From: Gammaproteobacteria bacterium
Lineage (GTDB): Bacteria; Pseudomonadota; Gammaproteobacteria; Ga0077536
DNA: 64,000 nt
Direction: 5' to 3'
Assembly (NCBI GenBank): GCA_963662545.2
Contig: CAXXLL010000003.1
Coordinates: 2,528,001 to 2,592,000, forward strand
A model generated the notes under the pieces. It made no database searches. It saw nothing but the letters and a program-made list of their open reading frames with translations, and was not told the DNA's origin. The position numbers and the translations under genes were made by a program. Every line of letters starts with the position of its first letter. Positions within the stretch are counted from its first letter, which is position 1. Below, piece by piece: positions 14,151 through 38,737 of this stretch.

Positions 14151-14384
14151 GTCCGCTATGCCGCCGTAAGCAGCCACGTCATGCTGCACTGCAGGAGTCC
14201 GCTATCGACCCAGACTGTGTGAAAACTCAATAATACGACGTCGAAAGTAAAAAATTCCCCACCAGCATAGTAGTTAAGCACCATGAAAAGGGATCAGCAC
14301 ATCGCATTAATACACTTCCGAGTGTCGGTTCCCCACTTTTGAAAAACGCAAATAGTTTTCACACAGTCTGGACCCTGAGCAGAC
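14151..14384 (-). repeat. Composite palindromic module-boundary repeat, copy 1 (split by a miniature IS)
   Basis: GTCCGCTATGCCGCCGTAAGCAGCC, then a GCTGCACTGC spacer, then GTCCGCTATCGACC[insert]CTGAGCAGAC. Confidence 0.75.
14211..14370. mobile_element. MITE with IS1182-like ends
   Basis: TIRs CAGACTGTGTGAAAACT / AGTTTTCACACAGTCTG, flanked by a GACC 4-bp duplication. Confidence 0.8.
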
Positions 14385-14444
14385 ATCACCCGTAGTTAGG
14401 CCGAGGAGGGAGAGCGGCAGTCAAGAGGTCGTGTTGAGCGCTTG

Positions 14445-14942
14445 TCAGACATCGCCATCGTCGTTTAGCTCCCTATCTACAGCTACAACGAATTCAGGTG
14501 AAATACCGGAGACGACCGGGCTTGCTTTTTGCCACTCCTGAATAGCCAAGGGATTCTCTTTGAGAACGCCAACCAAATGTATGACGCTTATTGATTCTTC
14601 GTATCCAGCCGTTCCGTGCACTACGCTTCTGTATGATGTTGCCGCTGCAAGGAATAAATCCTGAAAGCAGATAGAAAACAGAATCTGTTCATCTTCGGAC
14701 AGTTCTTCATCGTGTCGCGCGCGGACCATGATCTTTGCCAGTTCGGGAGTACCCAGTACGGCGCGGCGCCAGTCCGAATACATTCCTACCGCAGTGGCTG
14801 TTCCTTGTTGGAACGCATGTTCAGATGTTTCTTCTACGGCTTTTCGCGTCAATCGCGTCTGAATGGATAAGTAAATTAGAGTAATGATGATCGCTATTGC
14901 GCCAACAACCTCCGCAATAGTTCCTAACGCATCCCAGTTCAT
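14445..14942 (-). CDS. Cassette protein, MNWDA family with N-terminal TM helix, paralog 1
   Basis: MNWDALGTIAEVVGAIAIIITLIYLSIQ. Starts 15 bp after an attC GTTAGGC. Confidence 0.8.
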   Translation of the reverse strand: MNWDALGTIAEVVGAIAIIITLIYLSIQTRLTRKAVEETSEHAFQQGTATAVGMYSDWRRAVLGTPELAKIMVRARHDEELSEDEQILFSICFQDLFLAAATSYRSVVHGTAGYEESISVIHLVGVLKENPLAIQEWQKASPVVSGISPEFVVAVDRELNDDGDV

Positions 14943-14957
14943 CTGTTCTCTCGTGAT

Positions 14958-15051
14958 GCCTAACGCTAAGTTAACCTGCGCTTGACGGCGGGCGACCGGA
15001 GCGGAAGCGAAGGAAGGGGGCGGTCACGTCAGGTTGCTCCGTTTGTTAGGC
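14958..15051 (-). other. Integron attC site
   Basis: Minus strand GCCTAAC-AAACGGAGCAACCTGACG...GCGCAGGTTAACTTAGC-GTTAGGC: complementary R boxes and inner L-box arms. Confidence 0.8.
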
Positions 15052-15082
15052 GGATGTTGCACTTCAAATGTGAATCTAAGCG

Positions 15083-15553
15083 TCAACGTATTTGGTAATC
15101 TGCGACTTCTAAGCCGTTAACAAACTGCTGAAACTTGGTGTCAAAATTTTTGCTTCTCAACGACCACGCTCGCTGGAGTCCTGGATGACTATAGATGGTC
15201 GAGTAATACTTAACCATTGCATCCCAACTACGAGCGTCAAGCGTTCATTCGTCGTGTTGTATATATGCTTCCTCCCAGGCCCGAAATACGCCTCCGGCAA
15301 GGATTAAGAACCGTGTTGTCTCCGCGTCGGTTAGGTCGTCGTAGCTATCAACCGAACGAGCCCATATTTCTGACATATCCTCGGTCGCGAATTTCGCAGT
15401 CACTTCGCGGAAGCCCACGGAGATGTCGTGCATTGCCGCGAGACGCGATTCCTTGTTCTGATTTCGTATCTGAGTAGCGAGATAGATAAGCGATACGATT
15501 ACTCCTCCGGCACCGAGTATTTCCGCAATTGCTCCTACAGCATCCCAATTCAT
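15083..15553 (-). pseudogene. MNWDA-family paralog 2 with an in-frame TGA at 15245-15247
   Basis: The frame continues past the stop as TLDARSWDAMVKYY...HPGLQRAW... to TGA at 15083. Confidence 0.75.
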
Positions 15554-15614
15554 AACTCAAATCCCCCGTTCTCGCCTTTTTTGCAGGATATCTGAGAAAA
15601 CTGGAACCGTGAAT

Positions 15615-15755
15615 GACTGGAACTGGCCGACTGCCGTCGTCATCAGTTAACACGTCAGTGAACGCAACACCACGACCGCTTCCGAGCGCATTGCAGACGT
15701 AACCGAGAGCAGTGCTGCACTGCCGCGATCAGGCCGGAAACGACCCACAGCAGCC
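15615..15755 (-). repeat. Composite boundary repeat, copy 2 (three sites)
   Basis: Minus strand GGCTGCTGTGGGTCGTTTCCGGCC / GTCTGCAATGCGCTCGGAAGCGGTC / GACGGCAGTCGGCCAGTTCCAGTC. Confidence 0.75.
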
Positions 15756-15821
15756 ATCAGCGCCAGCGAAGGAGGGGCGCTGTCAAGCGGGTTGGCTGCA
15801 GCGCCTTGGTATGCGGAACTT

Positions 15822-16490
15822 TCATCGATTTAATCCGAACATTAAAAAGACGAAGCTAAGGAATGCAATAGAAACCATCAAAATGAGGATGCATTGGAAT
15901 ACGAACGCTGAGTACGGCTCCATATAACCAAGCACAATCGCGCCTTCCACGACGACTGCCGTCATTCCGAGCAGGGCGAAAAGTCGCATGATCGAACGTT
16001 GGGGCTCGGGCAGCAGTTCAAGAAATAAACCGGAACGCAGCATAAACGGTATTGACACAACCCAAGCTATAACATGAGCAACAATTAGTACGCGGAATGA
16101 CCACTTCCACATATCGCCTTCATTCTCGGTAATAAGGGCGACAGTTCCCGGGATGAAGGAAGCGAACACTGCAAAAGCAGTAACGACTAAGAGCGTTGCT
16201 GCAAGCGCGACCTCCGGTCCGGTCAAGCTTTTGCCGCCGCGTAATTGTATAACCCCGATTATCCCGGTAAATCCCATAAGCGTTATCGCGATCTGCAAAC
16301 GAGAACTCCTCGTCAGACGCAACGCGGCGCGGTTACGACGGCCGCGCTCGCGGTCCAATGCGATCGGTTAGTTAATGGAACATTCCTTAAGCCGGCAGTG
16401 AAGCCGTGGATCAGGGAGTTTTCGAGGCCACAGAGGGTCTCATGCCGTCATCGCTAAAGTCTGAAAGTCTGCTGCAATCGCGGGGTCCAT
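15822..16490 (-). pseudogene. Multi-TM membrane cassette protein (paralog of 26170..26679), interrupted by a ~155-bp insert
   Basis: Likely true start MDPAIAADFQTLA at 16490, 7 bp after GTTAGGC. It joins QIAITLMGFTGIIG if ~16298-16452 is removed. Confidence 0.65.
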
Positions 16491-16654
16491 CGCTTCCGCC
16501 TAACAATAAATGGTCATCAAATTGACGCGATTAATTGTGCCATTGTGACGCATAATTATCGGTGCAAACATAACTGTGGTTGCGGTAACCGGGGATGGCT
16601 TTTTTTGCCGAGAGCCGAAGCGCTCGGCTAACGTTCCGATGAACGCAACTCCGT

Positions 16655-16726
16655 GACTGCTTACGGGGGTACTGCAGACGTAATCTAGGGCGGTGCTGCA
16701 CTGCCGCGATTAGGCCGCTGACGACC
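16655..16726 (-). repeat. Composite boundary repeat, copy 3 (other half at 17592-17605)
   Basis: GACTGCTTACGGGGGTACTGCAGAC...GTGCTGCACTGCCGCGATTAGGCCGCTGACGACC. Confidence 0.75.
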
Positions 16727-17591
16727 CAGAGTGTGTGAAAACTCGGAATGGGGAATCACGTCGAGAACTCCTCGTCAGACGCAACGCGGCGCGGTTACGA
16801 TCCAATGCGATCGGGTTAATGGAACATAGAACGGCCCCAGAAGCCGGCAGTGAAGCCGTGGATCAGGGAGTTTTCGAGGCCACAGAGGGTCTCATGCCGT
16901 CATCGCGATGAGCGTAGCGAGTAGATTCATCACGCGTTTCATGTTGTGCACGTGCAGACTCATTTCCGTACCAACGTGTTTCAGCGTGCGCATCTGGAAC
17001 GAACCCATCACGATAGAGTCTCTCCATTCCGTCTGCGGCTATTGTCCGTTTTCGGGCAGCGGGGACACGCCGAACATGGTGCTTGCCTTTCTCCAGCGAG
17101 GCCAGCAAAGATTGAAGTCGCCTAGTAAAGAGGTTATAGCGCACGCCAGCTAATTAGTCAACTCCTTCTTATCCAGGTTGCGTTCGACAGTTGCGCCCGG
17201 TCGACCTACGGACATGTGATCAATTTTTTCGGATGCCGCTGCCATTCACCCCCGTATCCACGCTGGCAAACATTTTCTTCGAAGTTGCTCTGTGCAATTT
17301 GCTTGGGAAACCCGTAATCATTGTTAAACGGTTGCTAGAGGTTGCGGCGTTCCCCGCTGCCCGATCAAATCTAAATGCACAACGGTTCGATACCGGCGCG
17401 CGGGTTCGGTGAGGCGCGATTGGGACGTGAATTTTTAAATCGGAAAATGCGAGTTCTCCGTCAGACTTCCACGTTCGCGCCTCCCGTTCCGCGAGATTGA
17501 ACCCGGTTCAGGTGGGTTATGTACGTTGGATCAACGACTCCCCAGGACCGAAAGAGTGATCTTATCTGATGCAGAGTTTTCACACACTCTG
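16727..17591. mobile_element. IS1182-like-ended non-autonomous element with a garbled interior
   Basis: TIRs CAGAGTGTGTGAAAACTC / GAGTTTTCACACACTCTG, GACC duplication. Confidence 0.7.
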
Positions 17592-17749
17592 GACCCATAG
17601 CGAACGTCCGATAGAGTCCATTCCGTCGCGGCTATTGTCCGTTTTCACATGGTGGAGCGAGGCCAGAAAGATTTCCTAGTAAAGGCTAATTAAGGTTGCG
17701 GGTTCGGGACGACAATTTTTTCGGAATTCACCCCCGTATCCACGCTGGC

Positions 17750-18173
17750 AAACATTTTCTTCGAAGTTGCTCTGTGCAATTTGCTTGGGAAACCCGTAAT
17801 CATTGTTAAATCGGAAAATGCGAGTTCTCCGTCAGACTTCGTTCGCACGGAGTGGGTTATGTACGGATCCGGGAAGCAAAAGCAGCTTCGAAAGGATTAT
17901 TCAGACTCTCTTTCTTCCATTGTGAGCCTAGCGAAGTATTACGAAACTCTTGGTGATATTGCAGCGGAAGCCGAGGATGTGGATCTTGAGCTAGCATTCG
18001 AACGATACCGCCAATCTTTTCTAATTGACGGGCGTAAACGCGTAAAAAGCAAAATAGATCACATCGCAAAGCGAGCGGGCAACCCTGAAGATACAGCTGC
18101 GAACCTTAGACCCGCACGAACACGATTCCGGACCTCAACAATCGAGTTCACGAAGTTTCTCCAGAACACCTAA
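17750..18173 (+). pseudogene. 5'-truncated hypothetical protein
   Basis: Reads NIFFEVALCNLLGKPVIIVK...PSDFV, resembling nucleoside-deoxyribosyltransferase/TIR-like C-terminal motifs. No clear start. Confidence 0.4.
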
Positions 18174-18198
18174 CGCCAGGGTGGTCCATTTGTTAGGC
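18168..18198 (-). other. Internally deleted attC-like site
   Basis: ACCTAAC...GTTAGGC with only ~17 bp between the boxes. Confidence 0.5.
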
Positions 18199-18222
18199 GG
18201 CTGTTACATTTCACTTGGAAAT

Positions 18223-18678
18223 CTAAGCATCATTTAGCAGGTTTTCGATATAGGCTCTCATCGTACTCGACACATCTTCTCGAGCGCTCGTTCCCCACCA
18301 TTCTTGAACTCCTTTTGTGCCAAACAAAAACCGGAGGTTTTTGTCGCAGCCCGCTAAGATAGCCGGTGTTGTAGCCTCCGGCGCACCGACAAGCAGTTCA
18401 TAAACCATCATGCGATCTAACATCCAGTATGAGAAAGAAATTTTCTCTTCTTCTGTAAGCTGTTCGAAGCTTTCCTGACCTCTTTTGAGAACGCCAGCCA
18501 TATACTCACTTAATGGTCCTACGTTGGATTGCGACATTCGGTCACTCAGTGCAGCAAAAGTCTGTGCCTTGACCGCGCTAGTATTCTGGCGAATTTGTAG
18601 GGCCAAGAATATTAGCGATGCAACAACGGCGAGTGCGCCAATTAGATCGGCCCAATCTGCTATGGTGCCAAAATCCAT
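18223..18678 (-). CDS. MNWDA-family paralog 3
   Basis: MDFGTIADWADLIGALAVVASLIFLALQIRQN, GVQEWW, AGGAG RBS. Confidence 0.8.
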   Translation of the reverse strand: MDFGTIADWADLIGALAVVASLIFLALQIRQNTSAVKAQTFAALSDRMSQSNVGPLSEYMAGVLKRGQESFEQLTEEEKISFSYWMLDRMMVYELLVGAPEATTPAILAGCDKNLRFLFGTKGVQEWWGTSAREDVSSTMRAYIENLLNDA

Positions 18679-18781
18679 TGAATAGTCTCCTTAATGCCTA
18701 AAAAAGCGTAGCGAACGCACCGCATTAATAATAGAGGTGCTCTAGCGACCGCCTCAGGGGTGGCTACCAAGCCTGCGGGAT

Positions 18782-18910
18782 GTCCGCACCTGGCCGACTG
18801 CTGCCGTACCCTCTCGACTCGATGCCTGAAGCTACTCGACGACCGCTATTGAGGGTACTGCAGACGTAATCTAGAACCGTGCTGCACTGCCGCGATTAGG
18901 CCGCTGACGG
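18782..18910 (-). repeat. Composite boundary repeat, copy 4
   Basis: GTCCGCACCTGGCCGACTGCTGCC ... GACCGCTATTGAGGGTACTGCAGAC ... GCTGCACTGCCGCGATTAGGCCGCTGAC. Confidence 0.75.
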
Positions 18911-19060
18911 GGAACAGTCAGCGGCAGGCTGTCTCAAATGGCGTGAGCTGTTATCCGCGTAACTACCGGCAGGTTTATTTCCAGCTCGAAACACGAGATC
19001 ATCTTCGCCTAGCCGCTCCCAGTCGCGGCCGTCAATAAAACAACACGAGAGAACTGCACC

Positions 19061-19855
19061 ATGCCCCACATCAATCGCGACGGCGTCAAAGTCTATTACG
19101 AGAGTTTCGGCCAGGGTCTGCCCATCGTCTTCCTGCACCCGTGGAGTACCAACCGGTATATCTGGACGAATCAGTTGCTCGAGTTCGCGCGCAACCACCA
19201 ATGCATAGTGGTCGATCACCGCGGCCACGGCCTGTCCGACAAACCGGCCGAAGGTTACGGCATCGGCGAGATGGCAGCGGACGTGGTCGCCATTCTCGAT
19301 GACGCCGGGATCGACCGTGCGGTACTGGTGGGCAATTCGATCGGCGGCATGGTCGCCATGCAGACGAGCCTCGATACACCGGAACGCGTTATCGGCAATC
19401 TCATTGTAAGCAGCGCTACTAATTTCGGGGCGGATGCGCCGCCGGAAATGGCGGAAGCGATGCAGAAAGACTGGCGCGGTATGTTCAGCGGCCTACTCAA
19501 ATCCGCCGTCTCCGCTAAATCCAAGGCCGAACGACCGGAGATCCTCACGTATATGGAAGGCTGCTTCCGCGTCGACGACAATTTCACTGAAGGCGTGTTC
19601 TGGGCCAGCGTGGCCGATCCGGAGGGCGTGTTCAACTGGAACATCTCCGACCGGCTCAAGGACATCAAGCAGCCCACCCTGATCATCGCCGGCGAGGAAG
19701 ACGGCGCGACCACCCCGGCCCATAATCAATTCCTGGCCGACAACATTCCCGGCGCGGAAATCAAGATGTACAAGGACGTCGCGCACTTTTGCCAGTTGGA
19801 AAAGCCGACTGTCTTCAACGAAGACTTGCGAAACTTCATCGCCAAGGTCGCCTGA
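19061..19855 (+). CDS. Alpha/beta fold hydrolase
   Basis: DHRGHGLS, GNSIGG nucleophile elbow, GEEDGAT, AHF. Confidence 0.9.
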   Translation: MPHINRDGVKVYYESFGQGLPIVFLHPWSTNRYIWTNQLLEFARNHQCIVVDHRGHGLSDKPAEGYGIGEMAADVVAILDDAGIDRAVLVGNSIGGMVAMQTSLDTPERVIGNLIVSSATNFGADAPPEMAEAMQKDWRGMFSGLLKSAVSAKSKAERPEILTYMEGCFRVDDNFTEGVFWASVADPEGVFNWNISDRLKDIKQPTLIIAGEEDGATTPAHNQFLADNIPGAEIKMYKDVAHFCQLEKPTVFNEDLRNFIAKVA

Positions 19856-20069
19856 ATCCACCCTGTCTTAACCCGCGACTTCAGCCCGGACTTACCGGCG
19901 CCGAGGTCGCAAGCGGATCAGGTGGGCGGACACCGAGACTGATTAAGATCGAACGGTGCCGCATTTGATTAGAACCTATCCTCCCTGAATTTCAGTTCCG
20001 GATTGCGGAGCCTATTCCGACACGTCCGCGTGCGAACAGCAGCTATACCGTTTCAATCAACGAAACGTG

Positions 20070-20500
20070 CTGTCATTCCTGACACCGAGGTGCCGGTCCG
20101 TCAATGGGTCGTGACCTTCCCGCATGCCTTGCGGTTTCTCTTCGCCAGCCGCCCAGGGGTCATGGGCCGGGTGTTGGCGATCGTCTACCGCACGCTGGCG
20201 ACACATCAGCGACGCAAGATGGGATATACGCACCGCCAGCACCGGCGCGGTCACCCTCATCCAACGCTTCGGCAGCGCGCTCAACGTCAATATCCACTTT
20301 CACATCCTGATGCTGGATGGTGTGTATGTCGCCACCGACAACCGACTCAGCATCAAGCGCGTGAAGGCACCCGACAAGGCCGAGCTCGAAGCCCTCGTGC
20401 GTACCATCAGCGAGCGCGTGGGTCGCCACCTCGAACGCGAGGGTCTGCTGGTTCGCGATCTGGACACGAGCTACCTCGCGCTCGAACCCCACGATGACGC
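20070..20500 (+). pseudogene. IS91-family (HUH) transposase fragment, frameshifted
   Basis: PVRQWVVTFPHALRFLFA in one frame and TGAVTLIQRFGSALNVNIHFHILMLDGVY in another. Confidence 0.8.
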
Positions 20501-20512
20501 AAAAAAACCTGG

Positions 20513-20642
20513 GCATGGCCGCTCATGGCCGACAGCCGTGGTCCTCGGTTAACACGTCACCGAACACTGCCGCACGACCGCTTATGAGGTAACTCCAGAC
20601 ATAATCCTTACCAGTGCTGCATTGCCGCGATAAGGCCGCTGA
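20513..20642 (-). repeat. Composite boundary repeat, copy 5
   Basis: GGCCGCTCATGGCCGACAGC ... GACCGCTTATGAGGTAACTCCAGAC ... GCTGCATTGCCGCGATAAGGCCGCTGA. Confidence 0.7.
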
Positions 20643-20703
20643 GCAGGGGGACGCTGACGCGCAATACAACGTGGGCAACATGTACCACAAAGGCAAAAGA
20701 GTT
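20632..20703 (+). pseudogene. Single Sel1-repeat fragment
   Basis: Translates as KAAEQGDADAQYNVGNMYHKGK. Confidence 0.65.
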
Positions 20704-20809
20704 ATGAGGGTCTACCTTCGGAATTAGCAGGTAGCGGCACCGGTCAGTGCCACTGATGTCCGATGCTGGAATGTGAGAACTGACCCTTTTGGTGACCTTT
20801 TGGATGACC

Positions 20810-20989
20810 GTGCACGCCCACGAACGCATGGAGGCCATCATCGACGCTGGCATCGGTGAGATCTCGCTGGTAAGCATCATGCCGGGCCTGCCGCAGGATA
20901 AGATACTTGATTCTTTGCGGCTCTTCGCCGCCGAGGTGATGCCGCAGTATGCGGAACCGGCGGTGAGTAAACTTCAACAGACCGGTTAG
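20810..20989 (+). pseudogene. LLM-class flavin oxidoreductase C-terminal fragment
   Basis: PGLPQDKILDSLRLFAAEVMP. Confidence 0.6.
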
Positions 20990-21045
20990 TCGCGATGCCG
21001 GGAGCTGAAGCGTGCGCCATTCGCTCGCATTCTTAGGAGGTAGCC

Positions 21046-21822
21046 ATGGACTTTACCGATAAGCGCATTGTGATCACCGGCTCGTCACGTGGCATCGGCC
21101 GAGCGGCGGCCGAAGTACTACTGGCGGCCGGCGCGACGGTCACGGTCAACGGCCGAACTGAGGCGTCGACGCGTGACGGGATCGCGGCAATGGGCGGTGG
21201 TGACCGATTGATCGCGGCGCCGGGCGATGTGGCGACCGTGGCCGGCTGCGAGGCGATCATCGGCGTCGCAGCCGAGGCCATGGGCGGGATCGACGTCCTT
21301 GTAAACGCCGCCGGCATTGCTACGTTCATCACTCTCGAAGACAGTACGGAGGCGCTGTGGGATGCGACCGTGAATACCAACTTGAAAGGCACGTTCTTCT
21401 GCTGTCGAGCGGCGCTACCGCATTTGACCGCATCCAAGGGCAACATCGTCAACGTCGGATCGGACGCGGGATTGATCGGGGAGGCGGGGCTTGCGGCTTA
21501 CGGCGCATCCAAGGGCGGCGTTATACAACTCACCCGCGCACTCGCCCTGGAGCTGGCGCCCGACATTCGGGTCAACTGTGTGTGCCCGGGCAATGTCGAC
21601 ACCGACATGCTGCGCCGCGACTACATCGATCAGGCCGACGACCCGGCCGAGGCGGAAGCCGAAATCATCGCTTCTGCGCCCTTGCAACGCATCGCTGAGC
21701 CGCTAGAGATCGGTAAGGCGATTGCCTACTTTGCGAGCGACGACGCGGTGTTCGCAACGGGATCGATCCTGTCGATCGACGGTGGCACAACCGCGTGTAA
21801 CAACGCAACGGGGGACGAATAG
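21046..21822 (+). CDS. SDR family oxidoreductase
   Basis: TGSSRGIG, VNAAG, YGASK, AGGAGG RBS. Confidence 0.92.
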   Translation: MDFTDKRIVITGSSRGIGRAAAEVLLAAGATVTVNGRTEASTRDGIAAMGGGDRLIAAPGDVATVAGCEAIIGVAAEAMGGIDVLVNAAGIATFITLEDSTEALWDATVNTNLKGTFFCCRAALPHLTASKGNIVNVGSDAGLIGEAGLAAYGASKGGVIQLTRALALELAPDIRVNCVCPGNVDTDMLRRDYIDQADDPAEAEAEIIASAPLQRIAEPLEIGKAIAYFASDDAVFATGSILSIDGGTTACNNATGDE

Positions 21823-21836
21823 GTTCTAAACCGATC

Positions 21837-22022: not shown

Positions 22023-22047
22023 CGCCCGCGGATAGCCCGTGGATAAG

Positions 22048-22116: not shown

Positions 22117-22268
22117 CTTCTTTTGGTCTTTCGCAGACCCAAAGCGGAAGTTCGGGGCTAAAGGTGGCGAATTTTTATACTCACGTCATTAGCTCAAATA
22201 AATCTGTCCCTGAAGGCTCCCCACGAATTGAAGGAGAATTCACATAAAAAATAGCCATTTAGAAAAAT

Positions 22269-23653: not shown

Positions 23654-23770
23654 AAACAATTTTGGAAGCTACGCGAGCATGTTTTCTCGAAAGATTTCCG
23701 AGAATTTGTAGCCTCGGTGGAACCGGGCGAGTATCTATTAAAGTGATCCTTGTTTGAGCATTAGCAGGAT

Positions 23771-23911
23771 GTCCGGAAAGGGTCGTCAGCGGCCTAATCG
23801 CCGCAGCGCAGCACTGATTAGCGTTTTGTCTCCTATGCGCTCGGAAGTGGTCGTCCGGTAGCGTTCAGCGTCACGAGCATAATGAGCGGCGGCGGTCGGC
23901 CGATAGCGGAC
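23771..23911 (+). repeat. Composite boundary repeat, copy 6 (uninterrupted reference copy)
   Basis: GTCCGGAAAGGGTCGTCAGCGGCC / GTCTCCTATGCGCTCGGAAGTGGTC / GGCGGCGGTCGGCCGATAGCGGAC. Confidence 0.8.
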
Positions 23912-24501: not shown

Positions 24502-24593
24502 GCAGATCGGCATATCTGTTCGGGAAACGACGATCGTTAGTCGGCTATCCGACTCGACCTCGCATGCACCTTCGTCCCCCGCCAGCTAGCAAT

Positions 24594-24675
24594 GACGGTA
24601 TTGGGTCGGCAGCGGCCTTATCGCGGCAGTGCAACGCTGTTCAAGATTAGGTCTGCAATCCTCTCGAAAGCGGAC
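24594..24675 (+). repeat. Composite boundary repeat, copy 7
   Basis: GACGGTATTGGGTCGGCAGCGGCC ... GTCTGCAATCCTCTCGAAAGCGGAC. Confidence 0.75.
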
Positions 24676-24867
24676 TCGGGCGGCTTGGAAGCCACGTACG
24701 TCACGGTCGCCGCAGCACCCCTATTATTTATGCTGTGCGTTCGCTACAGTTTCCTAACTTCTCAGTGGAATCAAATGGAACGGCATACAAACCGCGCGCC
24801 CGTATGTTCATTAATAACGGGGCAATATGGCCCGTACATTAGCTGTTAGGCGGCAAGGGAACCTTCG

Positions 24868-26679: not shown

Positions 26680-26799
26680 ACCATTCGCCATAAAAGGCGT
26701 TCAACCTGACGCTTGACCGCGCGCTTCCTGCGCTGCCGCTTCGATAAGCCTTTATCGAGCACCGGTCAGCTTGAACGTTCGTGAAGTCTGCTATAGGGT

Positions 26800-27676
26800 G
26801 TGCGCCGTGCAAAGGCGGCGTTCTTCAGTGGGTGCAAGTCCCACCCGGCAACTGTCGCTCCAGCCGGAAGCAATCGGAGCAGTCATGGAGGTAACAAGAT
26901 GGCTGAAGCCTTCGGTGTAGAGGGTCACTAGGTGACTTGGCGAGTGTGCAGGCCGTAAGGTGAGTGAACGCTGAGCAAGCCTCGAAAAGGACGATGCACG
27001 TGCCGACCGGTCAACCCCTATCGGGAAGGCTGAAAGGGCTGGGGAAGCGAGCGATGAGCGCACCCAGTCGGCGTGCCGGGGTAGTGGCGATGGCATGTAC
27101 ACAGAGGAGAACGCGCGCAACACGGGAAGCCCGATGGCGTGGTCGGTCGTGGCGATCAACCGGAGACCGGTGACGGTCAGAGAGGGCGCTATGGGGTGGC
27201 GGAGAGGCCCGTAGTACTGAGGAAGCCGGGTAATGCTGGTGGAGGGAAGGGGCCTTAGTTCAAGACGGGCACTGAAAGCGGCAAAGCACAGGAGATTGGG
27301 GCAACCCTAGGCAACTCCGGTAAGGTGCGGGCGCGGTGGAAGGCGTCACATGTTGAAGCGAAGGAAGAACCCGGATTGCGATCTGGGAAGCGAATGCCCA
27401 CCCAAGTGGTGGCATTGGCGGTTGTGTGCAGAACGCTCGGTTCGTGCACGCCGGGATACACGGCCCGGTGTGGTGGGTCGGGTGAACTGCGGATGACCTT
27501 TCGTGTGCCAAGGCATGAGTCTTGTCCGAGAGCCGGATGCGGTAGTTCCGCCTGTCCGGTTCGATGAGGAGGATGTGGAAACGGAGTGATGGTCCGGCTA
27601 TTGAGGCACCGCCAGACGAAAGGGGCGGCAACAGATTGGCTGAACCTTAGACCACCGCGCCACATCCTTACTCTAC
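26800..27676 (+). ncRNA. Group II intron lacking an intact RT ORF
   Basis: 5' GTGCG. Domain V GAGCCGGATGCGGTAGTTCCGCCTGTCCGGTTC. 3' end CCACATCCTTACTCTAC. Only short IEP-like remnants (AKEEP) in domain IV. Confidence 0.9.
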
Positions 27677-28060
27677 CGTCAGCGGCCTAATCGCGGCAGC
27701 GCACACTAATTAGCGTTTTGTCTGCAATGCGCTCGTAAGCGGTCGTCCCGCAGCTTTCAGTGGAGCGTTAGCTGAGCAGGGCGGGTCTCGGCCTATTCTG
27801 TTGAAAAAGTCCGATTCGCCGTCGGTCGCGACGTGTGCAGAAAAACCGACCGCGTAGGATCGCCTGTAAGCGACGATCGGCACTCCGGGAATGGTTTAGC
27901 GACCCCCAAATATATCGAAATCGTATGCGGTACGACTTTTTCAACACAATAGTCCGTCAGCGGCCGAATCGCGGCGGTGCAGCACCGTTAGAGTTTACGT
28001 CTGCAATCCCCTCGTAAGCGGTCGTCGAGATGCTTCAAGCGTCGAGTTGAGAGAGCACCA
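27677..28060 (+). repeat. Composite boundary repeat, copies 8 and 9 (first half-site at 26786-26799)
   Basis: CGTCAGCGGCCTAATCGCGGCAGCGCA...GTCTGCAATGCGCTCGTAAGCGGTC, and a second unit from 27952. Confidence 0.8.
27794..27951. mobile_element. MITE with IS5/IS1182-like ends
   Basis: TIRs TATTCTGTTGAAAAAGTC / GACTTTTTCAACACAATA, flanked by GGCC/GTCC. Confidence 0.75.
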
Positions 28061-29689: not shown

Positions 29690-29838
29690 TATTGTGTTGA
29701 AAAACTCCCTCAACAGATGGTTTAGCCAAATTTAGGGGGTGCTCAAACCATTACCTGAAGTCCGATCGTCGCTTACGCGCGATCCTGTGAGGTCCAATTT
29801 CTCGGAGCAATGGGCGAACCGAGTTTTTCAACAGAATA
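29690..29838. mobile_element. MITE with IS5/IS1182-like ends
   Basis: TIRs TATTGTGTTGAAAAACTC / GAGTTTTTCAACAGAATA, GGTC duplication. Confidence 0.8.
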
Positions 29839-29960
29839 GGTCGTCAGCGGCCGAATCGCGGCAGTGCAGCAATGCTAGAGGTTAGGTCTGCAATTCCCTC
29901 GTAAGCGGTCGTTTGGCTTCCGAAAGCGTCATTGATTGAACTGACTTCGGCTCGCGGCCA
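29839..29960 (+). repeat. Composite boundary repeat, copy 10 (first half-site at 29676-29689)
   Basis: GGTCGTCAGCGGCCGAATCGCGGCAGTGCAGCA...GTCTGCAATTCCCTCGTAAGCGGTC. Confidence 0.8.
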
Positions 29961-30593: not shown

Positions 30594-31150
30594 CTGGAAC
30601 AGTAACCACCGTCAGACCTATTAAATTCAATCGGTTAAACTGTGTAAGTATCTACAAGTACGTTAAGTACGATTGAGGGCAGCGGTCGATAATTTTCAGA
30701 TACGAATAATTTTCGGTAAAAAAAGCGTTCCCGCGGAAACGTAATTTTTGGCCGGGAGCAGGCCATTTTATTGAAAACACTGTTTTCAATAAAATGGTAG
30801 CGTGCTTAAGCGCCTTGCAAGAACTCGATTCGTGTACGGTTCCCGGGCACATCGGCGAGCCTTTGATCGCGGGCGGGTAAGTCAGCGTCGAGAGCTTCAC
30901 CGAGCGCGACGTAGGCGGCGCGCAAAAGGTGTCCCCCGATATCGGGCCAACTCCACCTGACAGTTCATCGTGACGACTTTTCTACCCGTCACTTTGCCCA
31001 GCTTATCTCGAGCGCAGCCATCGTAAACAGGCGGGCCGGCGCAGTCCTCTGCAGTCATACATGACCGCCGTGAAATGGCTTAGCATGTTCCGGATCGATC
31101 AAGATGGTGCACAGGAGGGAGAGCCAATAATGCCCGTCGCTTCGCAACCG

Positions 31151-32536
31151 GAGTTATTGTCAAAAGTGGTGTTCAGGCGGTTGAATCAAGCGGCGACCTG
31201 ATTGACCCTTGTCACCTCGATACCATCTTCAAATTTAACTCCAGTAATCACCTTGGCCAGGTAGTCGAATCCACGTAGGCGTCGCCAATTCTTCTGCGCA
31301 CACCGCCCCAGCTTGAACATCATATGGAGCATGCCGTCCCGAGAGAGACCGCCCTTGGAGCGCCGGGTCCGGTGCCGGATCGTAGCGAAGGTGGATTCAA
31401 TCGGATTGCTCGTGCGAATGCTTTGCCAATGTGGTGCCGGAAAATCATAGAACGCCAGCAACTCCTCACGGTCTTTCTGTAGGCACAGGGTCGCCTTGGG
31501 ATACTTCGGTTCATAGGTCTTGAGGAACAGCTCGAACGCCTTCTCGGCGTCGGCCTTTGTCGCGGCCTGCCAGATCGCGTGCAGGGCTTGCTTGGCTTTG
31601 GCCTGTGCCGACTTCGGTAGGCAGTTCAGCACGTTCATCGTCTTGTGCATCCAGCAGCGTTGCTGGCGGGTCTCACCGTAGACTTCCTCCAGTGCGGCCC
31701 AGAAGCCCATGGCACCGTCCCCGATCGCCAGCTTGGGAATATTCATCCCGCGTGACTTCAATTTCAGCAACACCTCGCGCCAGCTCTGCGTGGACTCCCG
31801 CACACCATCCTCCATCGCCAAAAAACGCTTCTCGCCTCGCTCATTGACGCCGATCACCACCAACGCACACAGCTTCGTGTGCTCCGCCCGCAGGCCACTG
31901 TAGACACCGTCCGCCCACACCTACACCCAGCGGTCTTGGTCCAATCGCCCCTCGCACCAGTCGCGGTATTCTTGCGCCCACACCTGCTTCAAGCGCGACA
32001 CGGTGCTCGCCGACAGGCCCTTCGCCTGCGGCCCCAACAAAACTTCCAGCGCAGCGCCCATTTCGCCACTGGAAACGCCCTTCAAATACAGCCACGGCAC
32101 GGCCGCCTCCAAGGTTCTTGTCTTGCGCACATACGGCGGCACCAGCGCTGAACGGAAGGTCACCGGCTCGCCGAGCTTCGAACGAACCTTCGGGATCCTC
32201 ACCGTCACCGGCCCCAAGCCCGTCTGCAACTGGCGTTCCGGCAAATAGCCGTTGCGAACCACACCTGCTTTGTCGTCCGCCGTGCGATGTCCTGAATACT
32301 GCGCCATATATTCTGCCAGCTCGATTTCAACCGCTCGTTCAATCAGAGCCCGAGCTCCGTTTCTCAAAACCTCCGTCAACGGCTCTGGTATTCCTTCTCG
32401 ACCTGATAATTCAACAACCTTACTCTCTCTCATGGTGGCGTATCCTCTTTGGTTGGCTTGCTGCTTGGTAACAACATTTCAACCAGATACGCCGCCTTTA
32501 TTCAATTCGCTCAAACACCAGATTCAGTTATAACTC
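31151..32536 (-). mobile_element. IS256-family insertion sequence with a 9-bp target duplication
   Basis: Ends GAGTTATTGTCAAAAGTGGTGTT / AACACCAGATTCAGTTATAACTC. TCGCAACCG on both sides. Confidence 0.92.
31186..32433 (-). pseudogene. IS256 transposase with an in-frame TAG
   Basis: RNGYLPER, RWV*VWADG, IGDGAMGFW, QRCWMHK, RTSNPIES. Confidence 0.88.
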
Positions 32537-35500
32537 TCGCAACCGACCGCCAAGGTCTACGCCGCGCTCGAGCGCAAGCTCGAGGCCCGCATCGTCGAGC
32601 TTGCCGAGGAACGGGCGTACCAGGCGGCGATCAGCGATGTGCTGCGCGTGATCAGTGAATCGCGAACCGACCTGCAGCCGGTATTCGACGTGATTGCCGA
32701 GCGTGCGACTACGCTATGTAGTGCGGATATCGGTGTGCTTGTTCGATTCGACGGCCATGTCATGGAAGTAGGGGCAATTTACGGCCTTTCCATGGGGGAC
32801 GAGCAAGCTGGGCGTGCCCTCTTTCCGATGAAACCGCGGCGGGACATCGTCAGCGGTCGGTCGATCATCGATCGTGTAGCCGTTCACGTCGCAGATCTCG
32901 ACGACGACACTGACTTTACTGCGCTCAACCCGATCAGAAAGGCAGCCCTGCGCAGCGCGCTGGCCGTGCCAATGCTGAAGGAAGGTCAGTGCCTGGGCGC
33001 GCTCGTAGCCATGCGCCACGCGCCAGGACTGTTCCCGGAAAAGCTCATTACCCTGTTTCAAACCTTCGCCGACCAGGCCGTGATCGCGATCGAAAACGTA
33101 CGCCTGTTCAACGAGACCCAGGAGGCAGTGGAGCAGCAGACCGCAATCAGCGACGTGCTGCGCGTGATCTCGGAATCGCCAAGCGACGTGCAGCCGGTGT
33201 TCGACGCGGTAACCCAGCGCGCGATGGCCTTATGCGACGCGCGCATCGGCGTCGCAACGCGCTTCGACGGCCAACGCATGCATCTGGCGTCTTTACACGG
33301 CGTATCGCAGGACACATTCGACGCGACGCAAGTCGCTTTCCCGATGCCTCCCGCCCGTAACTCTCTCAACGGGCGGGCGGTCCTCGAATGCGCCACAGTG
33401 CAGATCCCGGACATGCCCGCCGACCCGGAATACACCATGTTCGCGGCGCAGGAAACGGGCAGCGGTCTTGCCGTGCCGCTGATGCGCGAAGGCCGGGTGG
33501 TCGGCACGCTCATGGTCGCGCGGAAAGAGACGGGTTTTTTCCCGGAGAAGCTTGTCAGCCTGCTCGAGACCTTCGCCGATCAGGCCGTGATCGCGATCGA
33601 GAACGTGCGGCTGTTCAACGAGACCCGCGACGCGCTGGAGCGGCAGACCGCGACCGCCGAGATCCTGCGCGTCATCAGCAGCTCGCCGACCGATGTGCAG
33701 CCGGTGTTCGAAGCGATCGCGGACCGCTCCATGGCGTTGTGTGACGCCCAGTGGGGCATGACCACACGCTTCGACGGCGAGCTGATACATGTAGGAGCGA
33801 TTCGTGGACCCGCTCCTGGGGTTGTCGAGACGGTACGCGCCGCTTTTCCGATGAAGCCCGGGCCAGACTTGATGGTTGCGCAGGCCATCCTCGACCGCGC
33901 GCCGGCGCAGACGGCCGACATGCTCGCGACCCCCGATTACAACGATGCGATTCGAGACGCTCTCCGGCGCGATGCCCAATACCACAGCGCCCTCGCAGTG
34001 CCCATGCTGCGTGAGGGCCAAGTCATCGGCTCAATCGGGGTGGCCCGCACGAAGCCGGGTGTTTTTCCGGACAAGCTCGTCAGCCTGCTCGAGACCTTCG
34101 CCGCCCAGGGCGTGATCGCGATCGAGAACGTGCGGCTGTTCAACGAGACTCAGGAGGCGCTGCAAAGGCAGACGGCAACGGCCGAGATCCTGCGCGTCAT
34201 CAGCAGTTCGCCGACCGATCTGCAACCGGTGTTCGAGACCATCGCGGATCGCGCGATGGCATTGTGTGGCGCCAGCGTGGGTCTCGTAACGCGGGTTGAT
34301 GGTGAGCAGGCACACCTGGTCGTGCTCAAGGGTGTGTCGGAAGAAGCCGCCGTGCCGATACGTGCAGCTTTCCCAATGCCGCTGGATCGAGGAAGTCTCA
34401 GCACGCGCGCCGTCCTCGAACGCGCGCCGGTGCAAATCAAAGATTTCCTCGCGGATCCGGACATCAGCGAGCCAGTGAAGGAAGCTGCCCGGCACGGCGC
34501 GCCGCGCAGTGGACTCGCAGTGCCGATGCTGCTGGAAGGCAAGGTTATCGGCACTATCCTGGTCAGTCGCCTTGATTCGGGCCTGTTTCCCGACGAGCTG
34601 GTCGGTTTACTTGAAACCTTTGCGGCGCAGGCCGTGATCGCGATTGAGAACGCGCGTCTGTTCAACGAGACCGAGGAGGCGCTCGAGCAGCAGACCGCAA
34701 TCAGCGACATTCTCCGCGTGATCGCCGAGTCGCCGACCGACGTGCAGCCGGTGCTCGAAGCGATAGCCGATCATGCTGCGCGCCTGTGCGACGCGGCGTC
34801 GGCATCAATTTTCCTGAGCGGGGATGACAGGCTGCGGCATGTGGCGTCGCGCGCCTCGATTGCCGGACCGTCCATGTTGATGACATGCAGGCCGAGGCCG
34901 AGGAGTTTCCGCTCGGCTTCGAATTTGCGCAACGCCTGGGTTTTCGCACGATCGTGGTCGCGCCGCTGCTCCGCGAGGGTCAGTCGTTCGGCACCATCCA
35001 GCTGCGCCGCCAGGAAGTACGGCCGTTCAGTGCACGCGAACGGGCGCTGCTGCGTACCTTTGGTGACCAGGCGGCGATTGCGCTCGAGAACGTGCGGCTG
35101 TTCAACGAAACCAAGGAAGCGCTCGAACAGCAAACCGCGACTGCGGAAGTGTTGCGCGTGATCAGCAGTTCCGTCGACGACACCGCGCCGGTATTCGAGA
35201 AAATTCTCGACAGTTGCGAGCATTTGTTCGCTACGGAAGAGCTGGGCATTTTTTTCGTCAACGACGGGCAAGTACACGTGGGCGCGTATCGCGGCGAGGC
35301 GCTCGAAGCGGTCACCCGCACGTTCCCGAAGCCGCTCGACGAGACGGCCACCGGAGTGGCAATACGCAAGCGCAATACCGTGAATTATCGAAGCGTACGC
35401 AACGATGTCGACGTTCCTCCTACGTTGATTGCCATAGCAGATCACATAGGAGACTTCTCGATCGCGATTGCGCCGATGCTATGGGAAGACCAGGCGATCG

Positions 35501-36848
35501 GTTCGATTCTGACGGTGCGTATCCCGCCCAACCCGTTCACAGACAAGGAAATCGCCCTGTTAACGACTTTCGCCGACCAGGCCGTGATAGCGATCCAGAA
35601 CGCACGCCTGTTCAACGAAACCAAGGAAGCGCTCGAACAACAGACCGCGACCGCCGAAGTGCTGCGCGTGATCAGTGGTTCCGTAGCGGACACCGAGCCG
35701 GTGTTCGAGAAAATTCTCGACAGTTGTGAGCGACTGTTCGATACAGAGCAACTTGGGATCTTGCTCGTGCGTGACGAACAAATACACGTAGGTGCACTGC
35801 GTGGCCCGGACGTAGCGCCCGTGAGTAAGCTGTTCCCGGTGCCTTTCGATGGATCGGCCTTGGCACTGGCGATACGCATGCTCCATATCGTGCACTATCC
35901 CGACGTCAGTGCCGTCGTCGACCTGCCGTCCGGCTTGCGCAACCTTTATGATCAAATCGGAAACTTTTCGTTTATGTTGGCGCCCATGCTGTGGGAAGGC
36001 CGGGGCGTCGGGTCAATTAATCTTATTCGTCAGCCGCCCAAACCATTCTCGGAGAAGGAAATCGAGCTATTGACAACCTTCGCCGATCAGGCCGTGATAG
36101 CTATTGAGAACGCGCGCCTGTTCCACGAGATCGAGAACAAGAGCCACCAGCTCGAGATCGCGAATCAGCACAAGTCGGAATTTCTCGCCAACATGTCGCA
36201 CGAACTGCGCACGCCTCTGAACGCGATCATCGGCTTCTCGGAAGTGCTGATCGAACGCATGTTCGGCGAGCTGAACGAAAAGCAGGACGATTACCTGAAG
36301 GACATCTACACCTCCGGTAAGCATTTGCTGGCGCTGATCAATGACATTCTCGATCTGTCCAAGATCGAAGCCGGGCGCATGGAACTCGAGCTCGAGACCT
36401 TCGACGTCGAAGAGGCGCTCGCGAACACCTTGATCCTGATCCGTGAGCGCGCGCAGCGACATGGAATTAGCTTGAAACTCAATAACGCTCCAGACCTTGG
36501 CGAAATCCGTGCCGACCAGCGCAAATTGAAACAGATCATGTTGAACCTGCTCTCCAACGCGGTGAAGTTCACCCCTGACGGCGGGCGCATCGAGGTGGGT
36601 GCGGCGTTCACGGGCGACGTACTCGAGATCTCGGTCGGCGACACCGGCATCGGGATTGCCGAGTCCGATCAGGAAACGATATTCCAGGAGTTCCGTCAGG
36701 TCGGCGGCGACTACACCAACAAACAGGAAGGCACCGGTCTCGGTCTCGCGTTGACCAAGCGCTTTATCGAGTTGCACGGTGGCACGCTTGGGGTCGTCAG
36801 CAAACCCGGGAGCGGCTCGACCTTCACGTTCACCTTGCCGAGGCAGTC

Positions 36849-37223
36849 ATGAGCCGGATTCTGATCGTCGAAGACAACGCCATGAACATGAAGCTCGCGC
36901 GCGACATTCTCGAGGCCAAGGGCTACGGCACGCTGACGGCGACCACCGGTGAAGACGGTGTACGCCTGGCCGTGGAGCAGCTGCCGGATCTGGTGTTGCT
37001 GGATATCCAGTTGCCGGGCATCGATGGCATCGAAGCCTTCAAGCAACTGCGCGCGGACGCGCGCACCGCGGCGATCCCGGTAGTCGCGTTCACGGCCTCG
37101 GTGACGTCTAGCGATCGCAGTCGTGTCGCGGAGGCGGGATTCGATGCGTTCGTGAGCAAGCCGATTGATCTCAAGACCTTCGTCATTGCAATTCAAGACT
37201 TAATCGAACCTGGCGGGCCATGA
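36849..37223 (+). CDS. Single-domain response regulator (DivK-like)
   Basis: ILIVEDN, LLDIQLPG, SKP. Confidence 0.9.
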   Translation: MSRILIVEDNAMNMKLARDILEAKGYGTLTATTGEDGVRLAVEQLPDLVLLDIQLPGIDGIEAFKQLRADARTAAIPVVAFTASVTSSDRSRVAEAGFDAFVSKPIDLKTFVIAIQDLIEPGGP

Positions 37224-38344
37224 GCGCCGCACCACCCGCAAAAATCCTGGTCGTCGACGACACGCCGGCCAACGTCAAGCTGCTGGTCGATGTGTTGACC
37301 GTGACCGGCTACGCCGCCACGGCTGCGACCAACGGCGAGGAGGCCTTGGCGCAGATCGCGAGCGAGCCGCCGGATCTCGTGCTGCTCGATATCATGATGC
37401 CGGGTCTGTCCGGCTACGAAGTATGCGAGCGTCTGCGTGCCGACCCGGACACGGCCCTGCTGCCGGTGGTGTTGTGCACGTCACTCGATCCGCAGCAGGA
37501 GCGCATCAAAGGCATCGAGGCGGGCGCTGATGACTTCGTCTCCAAGCCGATCAACCGGCCGGAATTACTGGCACGCGTAAAATCACTCTTGCGCATTAAG
37601 ACGTTGCAGGATGAAGTCAAATCGCAGGCGGCCGAGCTCGCACAATGGAACCAAACCCTCGAGGAGCGCGTGCAGGAGCAGGTGGACCAGTTGGAGCGGC
37701 TCTCGCGTCTGAAAGGGTTTTTCTCGCCGCAGCTCGCCGAGGCCATCGTTGCCGGCGGCGAGGATCTGCTCAAAACGCACCGGCGCGAGGTCAGCGTGGT
37801 GTTTCTCGACCTGCGCGGTTTCACCGCCTTCACGGACCGTGCCGAGCCCGAAGAGGTGATGGAGTTGCTGCATACCTACCACGCGCAAATGGGCGCCATC
37901 GTGCTTGCGCACGGCGGCACGCTGGAGCGCTTTGCGGGCGATTCGATCATGGTGTTCTTCAACGATCCGGTGCCGGTCGATCAACCGGCCGAGCGCGCCG
38001 TACTGATGGCACTCGAAATGCAGCAGGCGTTTCCGTCGCTCGGCGATCCATGGCGCAGGCGCGGCTTCGATCTGGGTTTGGGTTGCGGTATCGCGCAAGG
38101 CTATGCCACGCTCGGCGTGATAGGTTTCGAGGGACGGCGCGACTATGCGGCTATCGGCAACGTGACGAATCTCGCGGCGCGGCTGTGTGCCGAGGCCGAG
38201 GCCAGTCAGGTGCTGGTGGATCGAAAGATCATGGCGGAAATCGAGCCAATGGTCGCGGCCACCGCAGTAGGTCCATTGACACTGAAAGGTTTCGGCCAAC
38301 CGGTGCCAGCGTTCGAAGTCGAACGCTGGCTGCCCCCGGATTGA
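37220..38344 (+). CDS. Receiver plus adenylate/guanylate cyclase
   Basis: VVDD, DIMMP, FLDLRGFT, GDSIM, GNVTNLAARL. Confidence 0.92.
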   Translation: MSAAPPAKILVVDDTPANVKLLVDVLTVTGYAATAATNGEEALAQIASEPPDLVLLDIMMPGLSGYEVCERLRADPDTALLPVVLCTSLDPQQERIKGIEAGADDFVSKPINRPELLARVKSLLRIKTLQDEVKSQAAELAQWNQTLEERVQEQVDQLERLSRLKGFFSPQLAEAIVAGGEDLLKTHRREVSVVFLDLRGFTAFTDRAEPEEVMELLHTYHAQMGAIVLAHGGTLERFAGDSIMVFFNDPVPVDQPAERAVLMALEMQQAFPSLGDPWRRRGFDLGLGCGIAQGYATLGVIGFEGRRDYAAIGNVTNLAARLCAEAEASQVLVDRKIMAEIEPMVAATAVGPLTLKGFGQPVPAFEVERWLPPD

Positions 38345-38359
38345 CGCATTGGCCGTGGC

Positions 38360-38640
38360 TCACGCGCTCAATTGCTCCCGTATGCCCATCGCGGAAATGA
38401 AGTCGTGGTTGTGGCCGACGTTGTGTTTGCGGCATTCGATGATCTTACCGCCGGAGAAGCGGTAATAACCGAGGACATTGAATTTCAGTGTTTTGCCCGC
38501 CGGTGCCACGCCGCAGAACTTACCTTTCTGTTCGCCGCTGAATGACAACCAAACGAAAACTAGATCGTCTTCGGCGATCATTTCTTCGATTTTGAACGTA
38601 AAACCGCCGGCCGGAAACGCCTTGTGAAAAGATTCGATAA
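38360..38640 (-). pseudogene. SnoaL-like ester cyclase fragment
   Basis: FKIEEMIAEDDLVFV...GKFCGVAPAGK. 5' end replaced by an IS-like terminus. Confidence 0.6.
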
Positions 38641-38646
38641 TGAAAA

Positions 38647-38737
38647 TAGTTTTCACACAGCCTCGCTCGATAGCCGCCTCGTCGCAGCAGTGCAACACTG
38701 CTAAACGTTACGTCTGCGACTCCCTTAGAAGCGGACG
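38647..38737 (+). repeat. IS1182-like end plus composite boundary repeat, copy 11 (right edge of the island)
   Basis: AGTTTTCACACAGCC, then GCTCGATAGCCGCC..GCAGTGCAACA..GTCTGCGACTCCCTTAGAAGCGGAC. Confidence 0.65.

Follow-up and report, generated by a model that had tools for sequence, protein, structure and literature searches.

The window analysed here, a 64,000-nucleotide stretch of a gammaproteobacterial genome, contains an island in which a composite repeat of ~140 bases separates modules of unrelated cargo, and we found that copies of the same repeat form long, mostly co-oriented arrays across the 5.58-Mb genome (G000; C2 and C3 denote its contigs, and G001 and G002 its congeners). The repeat is best read as the junction element of a modular island system common to one genus. 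As to how the arrays arise, we tentatively favour an enzyme-mediated process in which modules bearing the repeat are inserted at copies already present, always in one orientation. An earlier sequence-only reading of the window had taken the repeats for module-bounding sites distinct from attC and dif, and in kind it was right; the system is larger than that reading saw, with 115 copies genome-wide in a sponge-associated host.

Genome-wide arrays of a composite repeat

A profile scan of the genome gave 124 matches at E<=10 and 115 at E<=1e-5, 109 of the latter falling into 11 clusters and six being solitary. Nine of the 11 arrays are uniformly oriented, with 38 copies over 136 kb (on C2), 17, 11, 9, 8, 4, 3, 3 and 3 copies; the two of mixed orientation are that in the window (----++++++) and one at C3:1449925-1462018 (--+). 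Such uniformity is not expected from independent insertion. Copies are spaced 0.2-22 kb apart, mostly 0.7-5 kb, and the arrays together occupy 314 kb, or 5.6% of the genome, at a G+C content of 0.562 against 0.581 overall. The copies lie genome-wide and independently of the integrase at 12698 that the sequence-only reading had considered as their possible partner, and they are not scattered outside islands.

Copies resemble each other as closely across arrays as within them: identity is 64.5% within an array, 64.8% between arrays and 65.3% for adjacent copies, and 12 of 84 copies have their nearest relative within their own array, with 14.6 expected. Because likeness within arrays does not exceed that between them, the arrays were assembled from a pool rather than grown by local duplication. 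Strict co-orientation and pool-like relatedness are facts that any explanation must meet.

The orientation of arrays does not follow the direction of replication, a candidate cause that we rejected since arrays in the part of C2 with positive GC skew run -,-,+,-,+. One array segment is duplicated exactly (C2:2574-2588 kb and C3:906-919 kb), so that a few copies are counted twice; these two arrays have 3.7- and 2.5-kb stretches in common at 100% identity, and the copies at C2:2588151 and C3:11954, at the end of C2 and the start of C3, have identical flanks. Such identity means either that a segment was recently duplicated or that the assembly has a faulty join at contig ends.

With one copy as BLAST query, the repeat was present in both of the two congeners and was found in none of 34 genomes from other genera of the family and in none of 24 genomes of the same class outside the family. 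Four contig stretches of three metagenome-assembled genome records with differing phylum labels also contain full copies; an exact-pattern scan of genome contigs returned 18 stretches, about the chance expectation, of which only four hold full copies. Public runs labelled as sponge metagenomes contain 34-70% of sampled words of window positions 18900-28000. One copy found no match among 72,556 plasmid records (blastn, distant mode), and at Rfam gathering thresholds the whole window yielded only a tRNA and a group II intron, nothing for the repeat. The accessible parts of the literature on IS91-linked recombinases, integron origin and repeat-bounded modules (10.1101/542381, PMC10945833) contain no description of such arrays.

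Anatomy of the repeat and its likeness to known sites

Over 85 full copies, conservation sets in abruptly at GGGTCG and peaks at GGGTCGTCAGCGGCC, at the linker around TCGCGGCAGTGCAGCA and at the 25-bp GTCTGCAATGCGCTCGTAAGCGGTC site; it is low for ~35 nt after GTCTGCAATGCGCTCGTAAGCGGTC and rises again at a 3' CGGC..TCGGCC..AGCGG motif. GGGTCGTCAGCGGCC is the sharply conserved right half of the 5' site, upstream of which only a weak ATGnCCGCT is present, the left arm of a 24-bp dyad that the sequence-only reading had described. The AGCGG motif occurs four times in direct orientation within the repeat; one dyad stands at the 5' end and the further motifs all lie to one side of it. Conservation so abrupt and uneven points to constraint, and the anatomy, a 5' core-like site followed by two or three AGCGG motifs, resembles that of composite recombination sites.

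The sub-motifs of the repeat were confirmed, namely the 5' site, the conserved TCGCGGCAGTGCAGCA linker, the 25-bp GTCTGCAATGCGCTCGTAAGCGGTC site and the 3' CGGCC..AGCGG motif; the AGTTTTCACACAG stretches that the sequence-only reading had counted as parts of the repeat proved to be the ends of insertion sequences (IS) and miniature inverted-repeat transposable elements (MITEs) inserted in it. Its palindromes exist as sites and are weak as palindromes: the 25-bp site is complementary at only four to five of nine arm positions, and Watson-Crick counts in the four dyads equal the expectation from column composition. Single-strand folds were no better than shuffles in six of eight tests (z -2.1 to +1.2), the two folds near z -2 owing their score to a hairpin outside the repeat, and RNAalifold found no consensus structure on either strand of 82 copies. 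Neither the copies nor the consensus have terminal inverted repeats; the true MITEs of these arrays are separate elements inserted into the repeat.

The main rival to enzymatic insertion is a selfish or structural intergenic repeat akin to repetitive extragenic palindromes (REPs) and bacterial interspersed mosaic elements (BIMEs), lacking a dedicated recombinase, with homologous recombination shuffling, deleting and duplicating the genes in between; we consider this unlikely, although it deserves serious weight. BIMEs consist of short imperfect palindromes arranged in composite units with conserved linkers between them, and REPs are palindromic repeats targeted by IS elements. Our repeat likewise combines two palindrome types in a mosaic with conserved linkers, and its copies are intergenic, indifferent to gene orientation and targeted by IS elements; the spread of shared-module break points over the repeat and the failure of our search to find a cognate enzyme also fit a passive element. 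Unlike dispersed REPs, however, 109 of its 115 copies are gathered into 11 arrays, nine of them uniformly oriented, and neither fold nor covariation supports a stem-loop. None of the seven PF01797 matches to Y1 transposases of the REP-associated (RAYT) type lies beside a repeat copy, one fragment being located inside the array at C2:612975-748998, and by our reckoning ~65% identity over ~135 nt makes a poor substrate for homologous recombination. A passive, REP-like nature of the repeat would still leave one to explain why copies are strictly co-oriented over 136 kb.

The arrays share several traits with integrons and with clusters of attC sites lacking integrases (CALINs): they are long and co-oriented, a site of ~130 nt stands between unrelated cargo, most of one site belongs to each unit, arrays also occur without an adjacent integrase, and the site is targeted by a group II intron and by IS elements. 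An interpretation of the repeat as an aberrant attC or an attI-like site, and of the arrays as cassette clusters on which the two IntI of this genome act in trans, is nevertheless very improbable. That proposal could draw on the co-orientation, on true attC sites and small cassette-like open reading frames (ORFs) inside some modules, and on the intron in the repeat, some group II introns being known to target attC. Yet no RYYYAAC/GTTRRRY ends occur in the repeat copies or their consensus, R''/R' cores, hairpin and covariation are lacking, and the cargo, often multi-gene or a gene fragment, reaches 10 kb and has no strand bias.

The genome's true integrons, moreover, use a different, well-folded site. 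Two IntI genes score above the TIGR02249 cut-off (462 and 461 bits), neither adjoining a repeat array, and one is preceded by eight ~128-nt attC sites whose ends read GCCTAAC...GTTAGGC and whose inner palindrome is near-perfect. True attC sites, which we located by profile (a plain scan for R''/R' pairs gave 31 unclustered matches), cluster mostly away from the arrays, the largest clusters being at C3:1917894-1949540 and C2:982347-995550, and have only four matches in the window, where they are cargo. The claim that the repeat is distinct from the IntI/attC system is therefore upheld, the two IntI genes having ~128-nt attC arrays of their own elsewhere. A true integron with ~128-nt attC sites resembling Vibrio cholerae repeats (VCR-like) spans C2:982347-997664. 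The cluster at C3:1917894-1949540 comprises 48 attC-profile matches with no integrase match within; both strands were counted, which leaves about half as many sites.

Distinctness from Xer/dif was confirmed as well, since the canonical dif at C2:2180010, set side by side with the repeat sites, shares no likeness with them. The pdif modules of Acinetobacter plasmids are bounded by 28-bp dif-like XerC/D sites in alternating orientation, and resemble the present modules in that short palindromic sites of recombinase type bound modules that face either way and recur in varied contexts; the repeat differs in being a composite, co-oriented unit of ~140 nt that is unlike its own genome's dif.

In architecture the repeat comes close to the res sites of Tn3-family transposons, which have three subsites, and to the internal recombination site (IRS) of TnpI, in which an inverted core is accompanied by direct accessory motifs; both function only in direct orientation and are insertion hot spots. 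Shared features are a length of about 115-140 bp, several unevenly spaced imperfect dyads or direct motifs that repeat one recognition sequence, and a core at one end. However, res occurs once per transposon beside its resolvase gene, whereas the repeat exists in 115 copies without a linked resolvase. The genome's only serine recombinase gene (PF00239; C2:2551529-2551855) is broken by a stop and lies inside an array, 2.6 kb from that array's last copy.

Modules, inserted elements and candidate enzymes

Cargo faces either way with respect to the repeat. In 94 modules, 135 cargo ORFs lie on the strand of the repeat and 111 on the other; the corresponding counts are 44 and 45 for the first ORF after a repeat, 36 and 42 for the last before the next repeat, and 22 and 21 for modules with a single ORF. 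Cargo may be up to 10 kb long and include several genes, such as an acyl-CoA dehydrogenase, a Na/H exchanger, an HflK/C pair and a lytic transglycosylase, or a GAF histidine kinase with two response regulators. The sequence-only reading had described cargo as often cut mid-feature, which applies to an IS91-family transposase stub in the window (20244-20483) and to a truncated MscS gene elsewhere; most cargo ORFs are whole between repeats.

Modules are shared across contexts. A 2.1-kb pyrroloquinoline quinone (PQQ)-dehydrogenase module is shared by two arrays (95% identity), its neighbours on either side being unrelated, and is bounded by repeats in a G001 array too, at 92%. This module reproduces, at 97% identity, 2.04 kb of a core locus (C3:2732 kb), the start of the next gene included, making the core genome one source of cargo among others. 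One G001 array contains modules known from four different G000 arrays, and two modules ordered A-B in G000 are ordered B-A in G002. That the repeats delimit modules, as the sequence-only reading had proposed, is thus borne out by modules recurring in other arrays and in a congener in differing order.

Among the 3,741 pairs formed by 87 full copies, 16 share the downstream flank alone; 11 of these do so through MITEs at the 3' motif, and five, four of them independent, through shared cargo. In the pairs sharing downstream cargo, the shared part starts after the 5' dyad (one), at the start of the 25-bp site (two) or at the 3' motif (one), while in both pairs sharing upstream cargo likeness ends at the 5' site or dyad. 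Because the shared side stays identical, these break points are lower bounds only; we excluded the truncation points of partial copies, since the ends of local alignments follow the poorly conserved 3' part. Upstream likeness stopping at the 5' dyad, together with downstream sharing of part of the repeat, indicates that the repeat body accompanies the cargo on its 3' side.

A module would then consist of the repeat body, from GGGTCG of the 5' site onward, followed by cargo of any kind, 0.1-10 kb long and facing either way. Modules would be added to an existing repeat copy in fixed orientation, which would give rise to co-oriented arrays, and could subsequently be lost, swapped or re-ordered. 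We infer that their insertion is enzymatic and site-directed.

Three kinds of mobile element target two fixed points of the repeat. A 1.69-kb IS of IS1182/IS5-like type, encoding a 478-aa DDE transposase (DUF772/DDE_Tnp_1) between 18-bp inverted ends, inserts with a GGTC duplication positioned at the centre of the 5' dyad; it is carried by 13 of 94 modules (one copy being at C2:687174-688865), with two of the 13 copies opposite in orientation. This IS and its short derivatives, the MITEs, are nearly confined to the 5' dyad centre and the 3' motif, the AGTTTTCACACAG stretches are their ends, and such an end lies directly 5' of 33 of 87 full copies. A group II intron of ~880 nt is present in three copies, all at the identical position in the 5' dyad and in the orientation of the repeat; besides the copy in the window, two lie upstream of repeats whose profile matches start at C2:1635167 and C3:15115.

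The third kind comprises IS91-like elements, in which a tyrosine recombinase gene is followed by a Y2 transposase gene. All five full copies (C2:623.5-629.8 kb, C2:613.1-615.6 kb, C2:1616.8-1619.3 kb, C3:6.8-9.4 kb and C3:920.8-923.6 kb) sit between CGGCCA(A/G) and nnAGCGGnC of the 3' motif or its equivalent in a diverged repeat, and two of them stand head-to-tail in tandem. Each of the five full-length Y2 copies is inside or adjoins an array and shares its orientation; counted from the 5' end, they occupy positions among the first four of four arrays. The IntI model aligns with the linked recombinase in two segments (positions 3-178 and 238-315), the insert specific to IntI being absent; the accessible part of one preprint places such recombinases in an 'Integron-like' subgroup next to IntI, without the extra helices of IntI (10.1101/542381). 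The Y2 transposase and the IntI-like recombinase of these elements lodged in the repeat are our sole candidates for an enzyme.

The IS91-like elements could themselves have made the arrays, either by one-ended, rolling-circle Y2 transposition that carries flanking DNA along and lands next to a GTCG..-type motif in the repeat, or by action of the IntI-like recombinase at the palindromic sites. Their consistent placement and co-orientation, their shared insertion point, the head-to-tail pair and the kinship of the recombinase with IntI all argue for such a role, and gene-fragment cargo fits rolling-circle capture. IS91 and ISCR (insertion sequence common region) elements have ends that are not inverted repeats, insert beside a short fixed motif, form head-to-tail tandems and capture gene fragments, a description that suits the fixed insertion motif and the tandem seen here. 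On the other hand, most modules have no transposase, and the left ends of five elements are not significantly like the repeat (local scores 19-26 against shuffle means of 17-18, with 7 to 77 of 300 shuffles scoring as well). The linkage to arrays is seen in G000 and not in the congeners' assemblies, where the arrays lack the element and only Y2 fragments occur, on contigs other than those bearing arrays. In four other genera that lack the repeat, the left end of the element abuts a similar short GTCG..-type motif, and six stretches from three of those genomes show no comparable arrays beside it, which fits simple target choice. On balance we regard the elements as rather improbable makers of the arrays.

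The sequence-only reading had suggested that the sites may be served by a tyrosine integrase at the left edge of the window's island (12698..13990, + strand; PF00589 at 26.5 bits, PF13102). Its gene adjoins the partial copy at the end of the array, and five arrays have some integrase placed alike, in side and strand, with respect to their repeats. Nevertheless, 60 relatives, both array-bearing congeners included, contain no homologue of this integrase at E<=1e-10, and it shows no likeness to the genome's other integrases, among them those beside other arrays, which form two mutually unrelated groups adjoining tRNA genes; the ten other arrays lack it. One group is a P4-type pair next to tRNA-Lys and tRNA-Met, a type of 196-217 aa lies beside two more arrays, and a G002 array follows tRNA-SeC (selenocysteine). 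The arrays are thus located in ordinary tRNA-linked islands, and their integrases have the look of island integrases. We reject the integrase at 12698 as partner of the repeat, and an account built on it is barely credible. Its frame is broken by a 52-bp tandem duplication at about 13746-13849; contigs from three public runs (X1, X5 and X15) skip exactly 52 bp there, and other populations therefore carry an undisrupted gene.

Several observations weigh against enzymatic insertion as we favour it. Across the genus, there is no recombinase whose occurrence matches that of the repeat. At E<=1e-30, neither congener's assembly contains a homologue of the IS91-linked recombinase, which is present in four other genera without the repeat, and six stretches from three other-genus genomes revealed no comparable arrays near the IS91-like element, one of them having an attC array. 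The G002 assembly encodes only two tyrosine recombinases, which have the strongest family scores in that genome and look like XerC and XerD. The congener assemblies are incomplete, of draft or metagenome type (89% complete in 20 contigs and 95% complete in 150 contigs), and repeated elements are often missing from drafts, so that absence there makes an involvement of the IS91-like elements somewhat less probable. Turning to the repeat itself, none of its four dyads shows covariation, and the left arm of the 5' site is weakly conserved. Break points of shared modules fall at the 5' site (three), the start of the 25-bp site (two) and the 3' site (one), giving no single crossover point. The repeats on either side of the shared PQQ gene show ~70-80% likeness between species, the gene itself more, and 28-46 nt of other sequence lie between the captured PQQ fragment and both repeats. 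Of the sequence-only reading's proposal, the bounding of modules stands; site-specific recombination is unproven, with break points at three places and no co-occurring recombinase.

No clean empty sites were found in the congeners for two solitary copies or for the right edge of the window's island, synteny ending near repeats or contig ends. Joints near repeats in Logan contigs have short sides (<=32 nt) or low depth, and contigs break inside repeats.

If modules do move through the site, the genus would possess its own means of stockpiling and reshuffling genes over about 314 kb. A bolder proposal, which we think distinctly doubtful, is that these arrays join integrons and pdif modules as a third class of gene-module array in bacteria, operating on a double-stranded composite site with core and accessory parts. 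On this proposal, modules of any content would be inserted, excised and re-ordered in fixed orientation over 5.6% of the chromosome. In its boldest form the enzyme would be the IntI-like recombinase of the IS91-like elements, and the system, if so, a living relative of the integrons' ancestor working without a folded attC. IS91-linked recombinases are reported, in the part of the source available, as the nearest relatives of IntI (10.1101/542381), and the occurrence of such relatives within co-oriented arrays bears on the question of integron origin. The fixed insertion points also provide a natural test bed for target choice by IS elements, group II introns and rolling-circle elements.

The island in the window

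Window copies were located by a repeat search over 12000-40000, which gave families of direct and inverted repeats of 100-130 nt at the positions of the sequence-only reading, followed by an nhmmer profile; of the eleven candidate copies aligned, ten entered the profile and a partial copy was left out. Between 14182 and 38785 we found ten full copies (E 1e-25 to 1e-33) and one partial copy, and none in the rest of the window. This matches the sequence-only reading in its count of about 11 composite copies, in ten of its 11 positions and in the absence of copies from the flanking core genes. Its copy at 29676 is a MITE end, the actual copy starting at 29823, and its cargo spacing of 0.5-3 kb compares with 0.27-8.8 kb measured here. 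The island is bounded by core genes assigned by Pfam, on the left recA, cinA and a tadA-type deaminase and on the right pxpB/C-type carboxyltransferase subunits and a biotin carboxylase; G+C drops from about 0.60 to about 0.50 across 12-31 kb.

Four full copies and the partial one (14182-20648) point left. The partial copy, last towards the integrase (14182..14226, - strand; E 0.05, profile positions 3-51), comprises on reading its sequence only the 5' site and linker, and its 5' site holds a 162-bp MITE of the IS1182/IS5-like family with 18-bp inverted ends (14210..14371), the same unit being found upstream of five other copies. The full copies of this half, all on the - strand, are at 15624..15757 (E 2.2e-32), 16606..16742 (E 8.5e-33), 18791..18923 (E 2.2e-32) and 20526..20648 (E 1.2e-30). 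The 5' site of the second abuts a right-end fragment of an IS1182/IS5-like element (16728-16906), identified by the same flank as in full IS copies, and the 3' end of the fourth abuts the truncated IS91-family Y2 transposase fragment at 20244-20483 (+ strand; PF04986 positions 1-85 of 183). Before the first of these full copies, an attC-type site of the true-integron kind (14958..15050; GCCTAAC...GTTAGGC, with attC profile matches) forms part of the cargo.

Six copies (23769-38785), all on the + strand, point right. The first is at 23769..23901 (E 6.5e-30), and that at 24591..24719 (E 2.7e-25) is followed by a module of three small ORFs with attC-type sites between them, matched by the attC profile. 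The copy at 27662..27793 (E 7.4e-30) has its first ~13 nt (26786-26798) split off by an ORF-less group II intron (26799..27676, + strand) at the centre of its 5' site; RF02003 scores 100.8 bits at 26826-26963, and RF00029 scores 36.1 bits (E 4.6e-5), below its gathering threshold of 40, at 27528-27676. A MITE-like unit with inverted ends (27795..27953), of the flank family also seen at C2:76199 and C2:76825, separates this copy from the next, at 27936..28060 (E 2.6e-32). Then follow 29823..29960 (E 1.2e-32) and the last copy, at 38649..38785 (E 2.7e-26), which marks the right edge of the island ~80 nt from the pxpC stop, as placed by Pfam matches of the flanking genes.

A multi-GAF histidine kinase at 32639-36852 appears as a pair of overlapping ORFs (840 and 655 aa), the likely cause being a frameshift, and its internal repeats of 507-525 nt are its GAF domains. 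Two exact local duplications, 16389-16454 with 16841-16906 (66 nt, 452 nt apart) and 17244-17328 with 17726-17810 (85 nt, 482 nt apart), lie among IS fragments and suggest recent scrambling of that part of the island. Between recA and cinA, a stretch of ~170 nt (11350-11520) matches six further places in G002 and is therefore another multi-copy element. Short tandem units occur beside repeat copies, one of 23 bp repeated four times (29535-29626) and one of 22 bp repeated twice (38779-38822).

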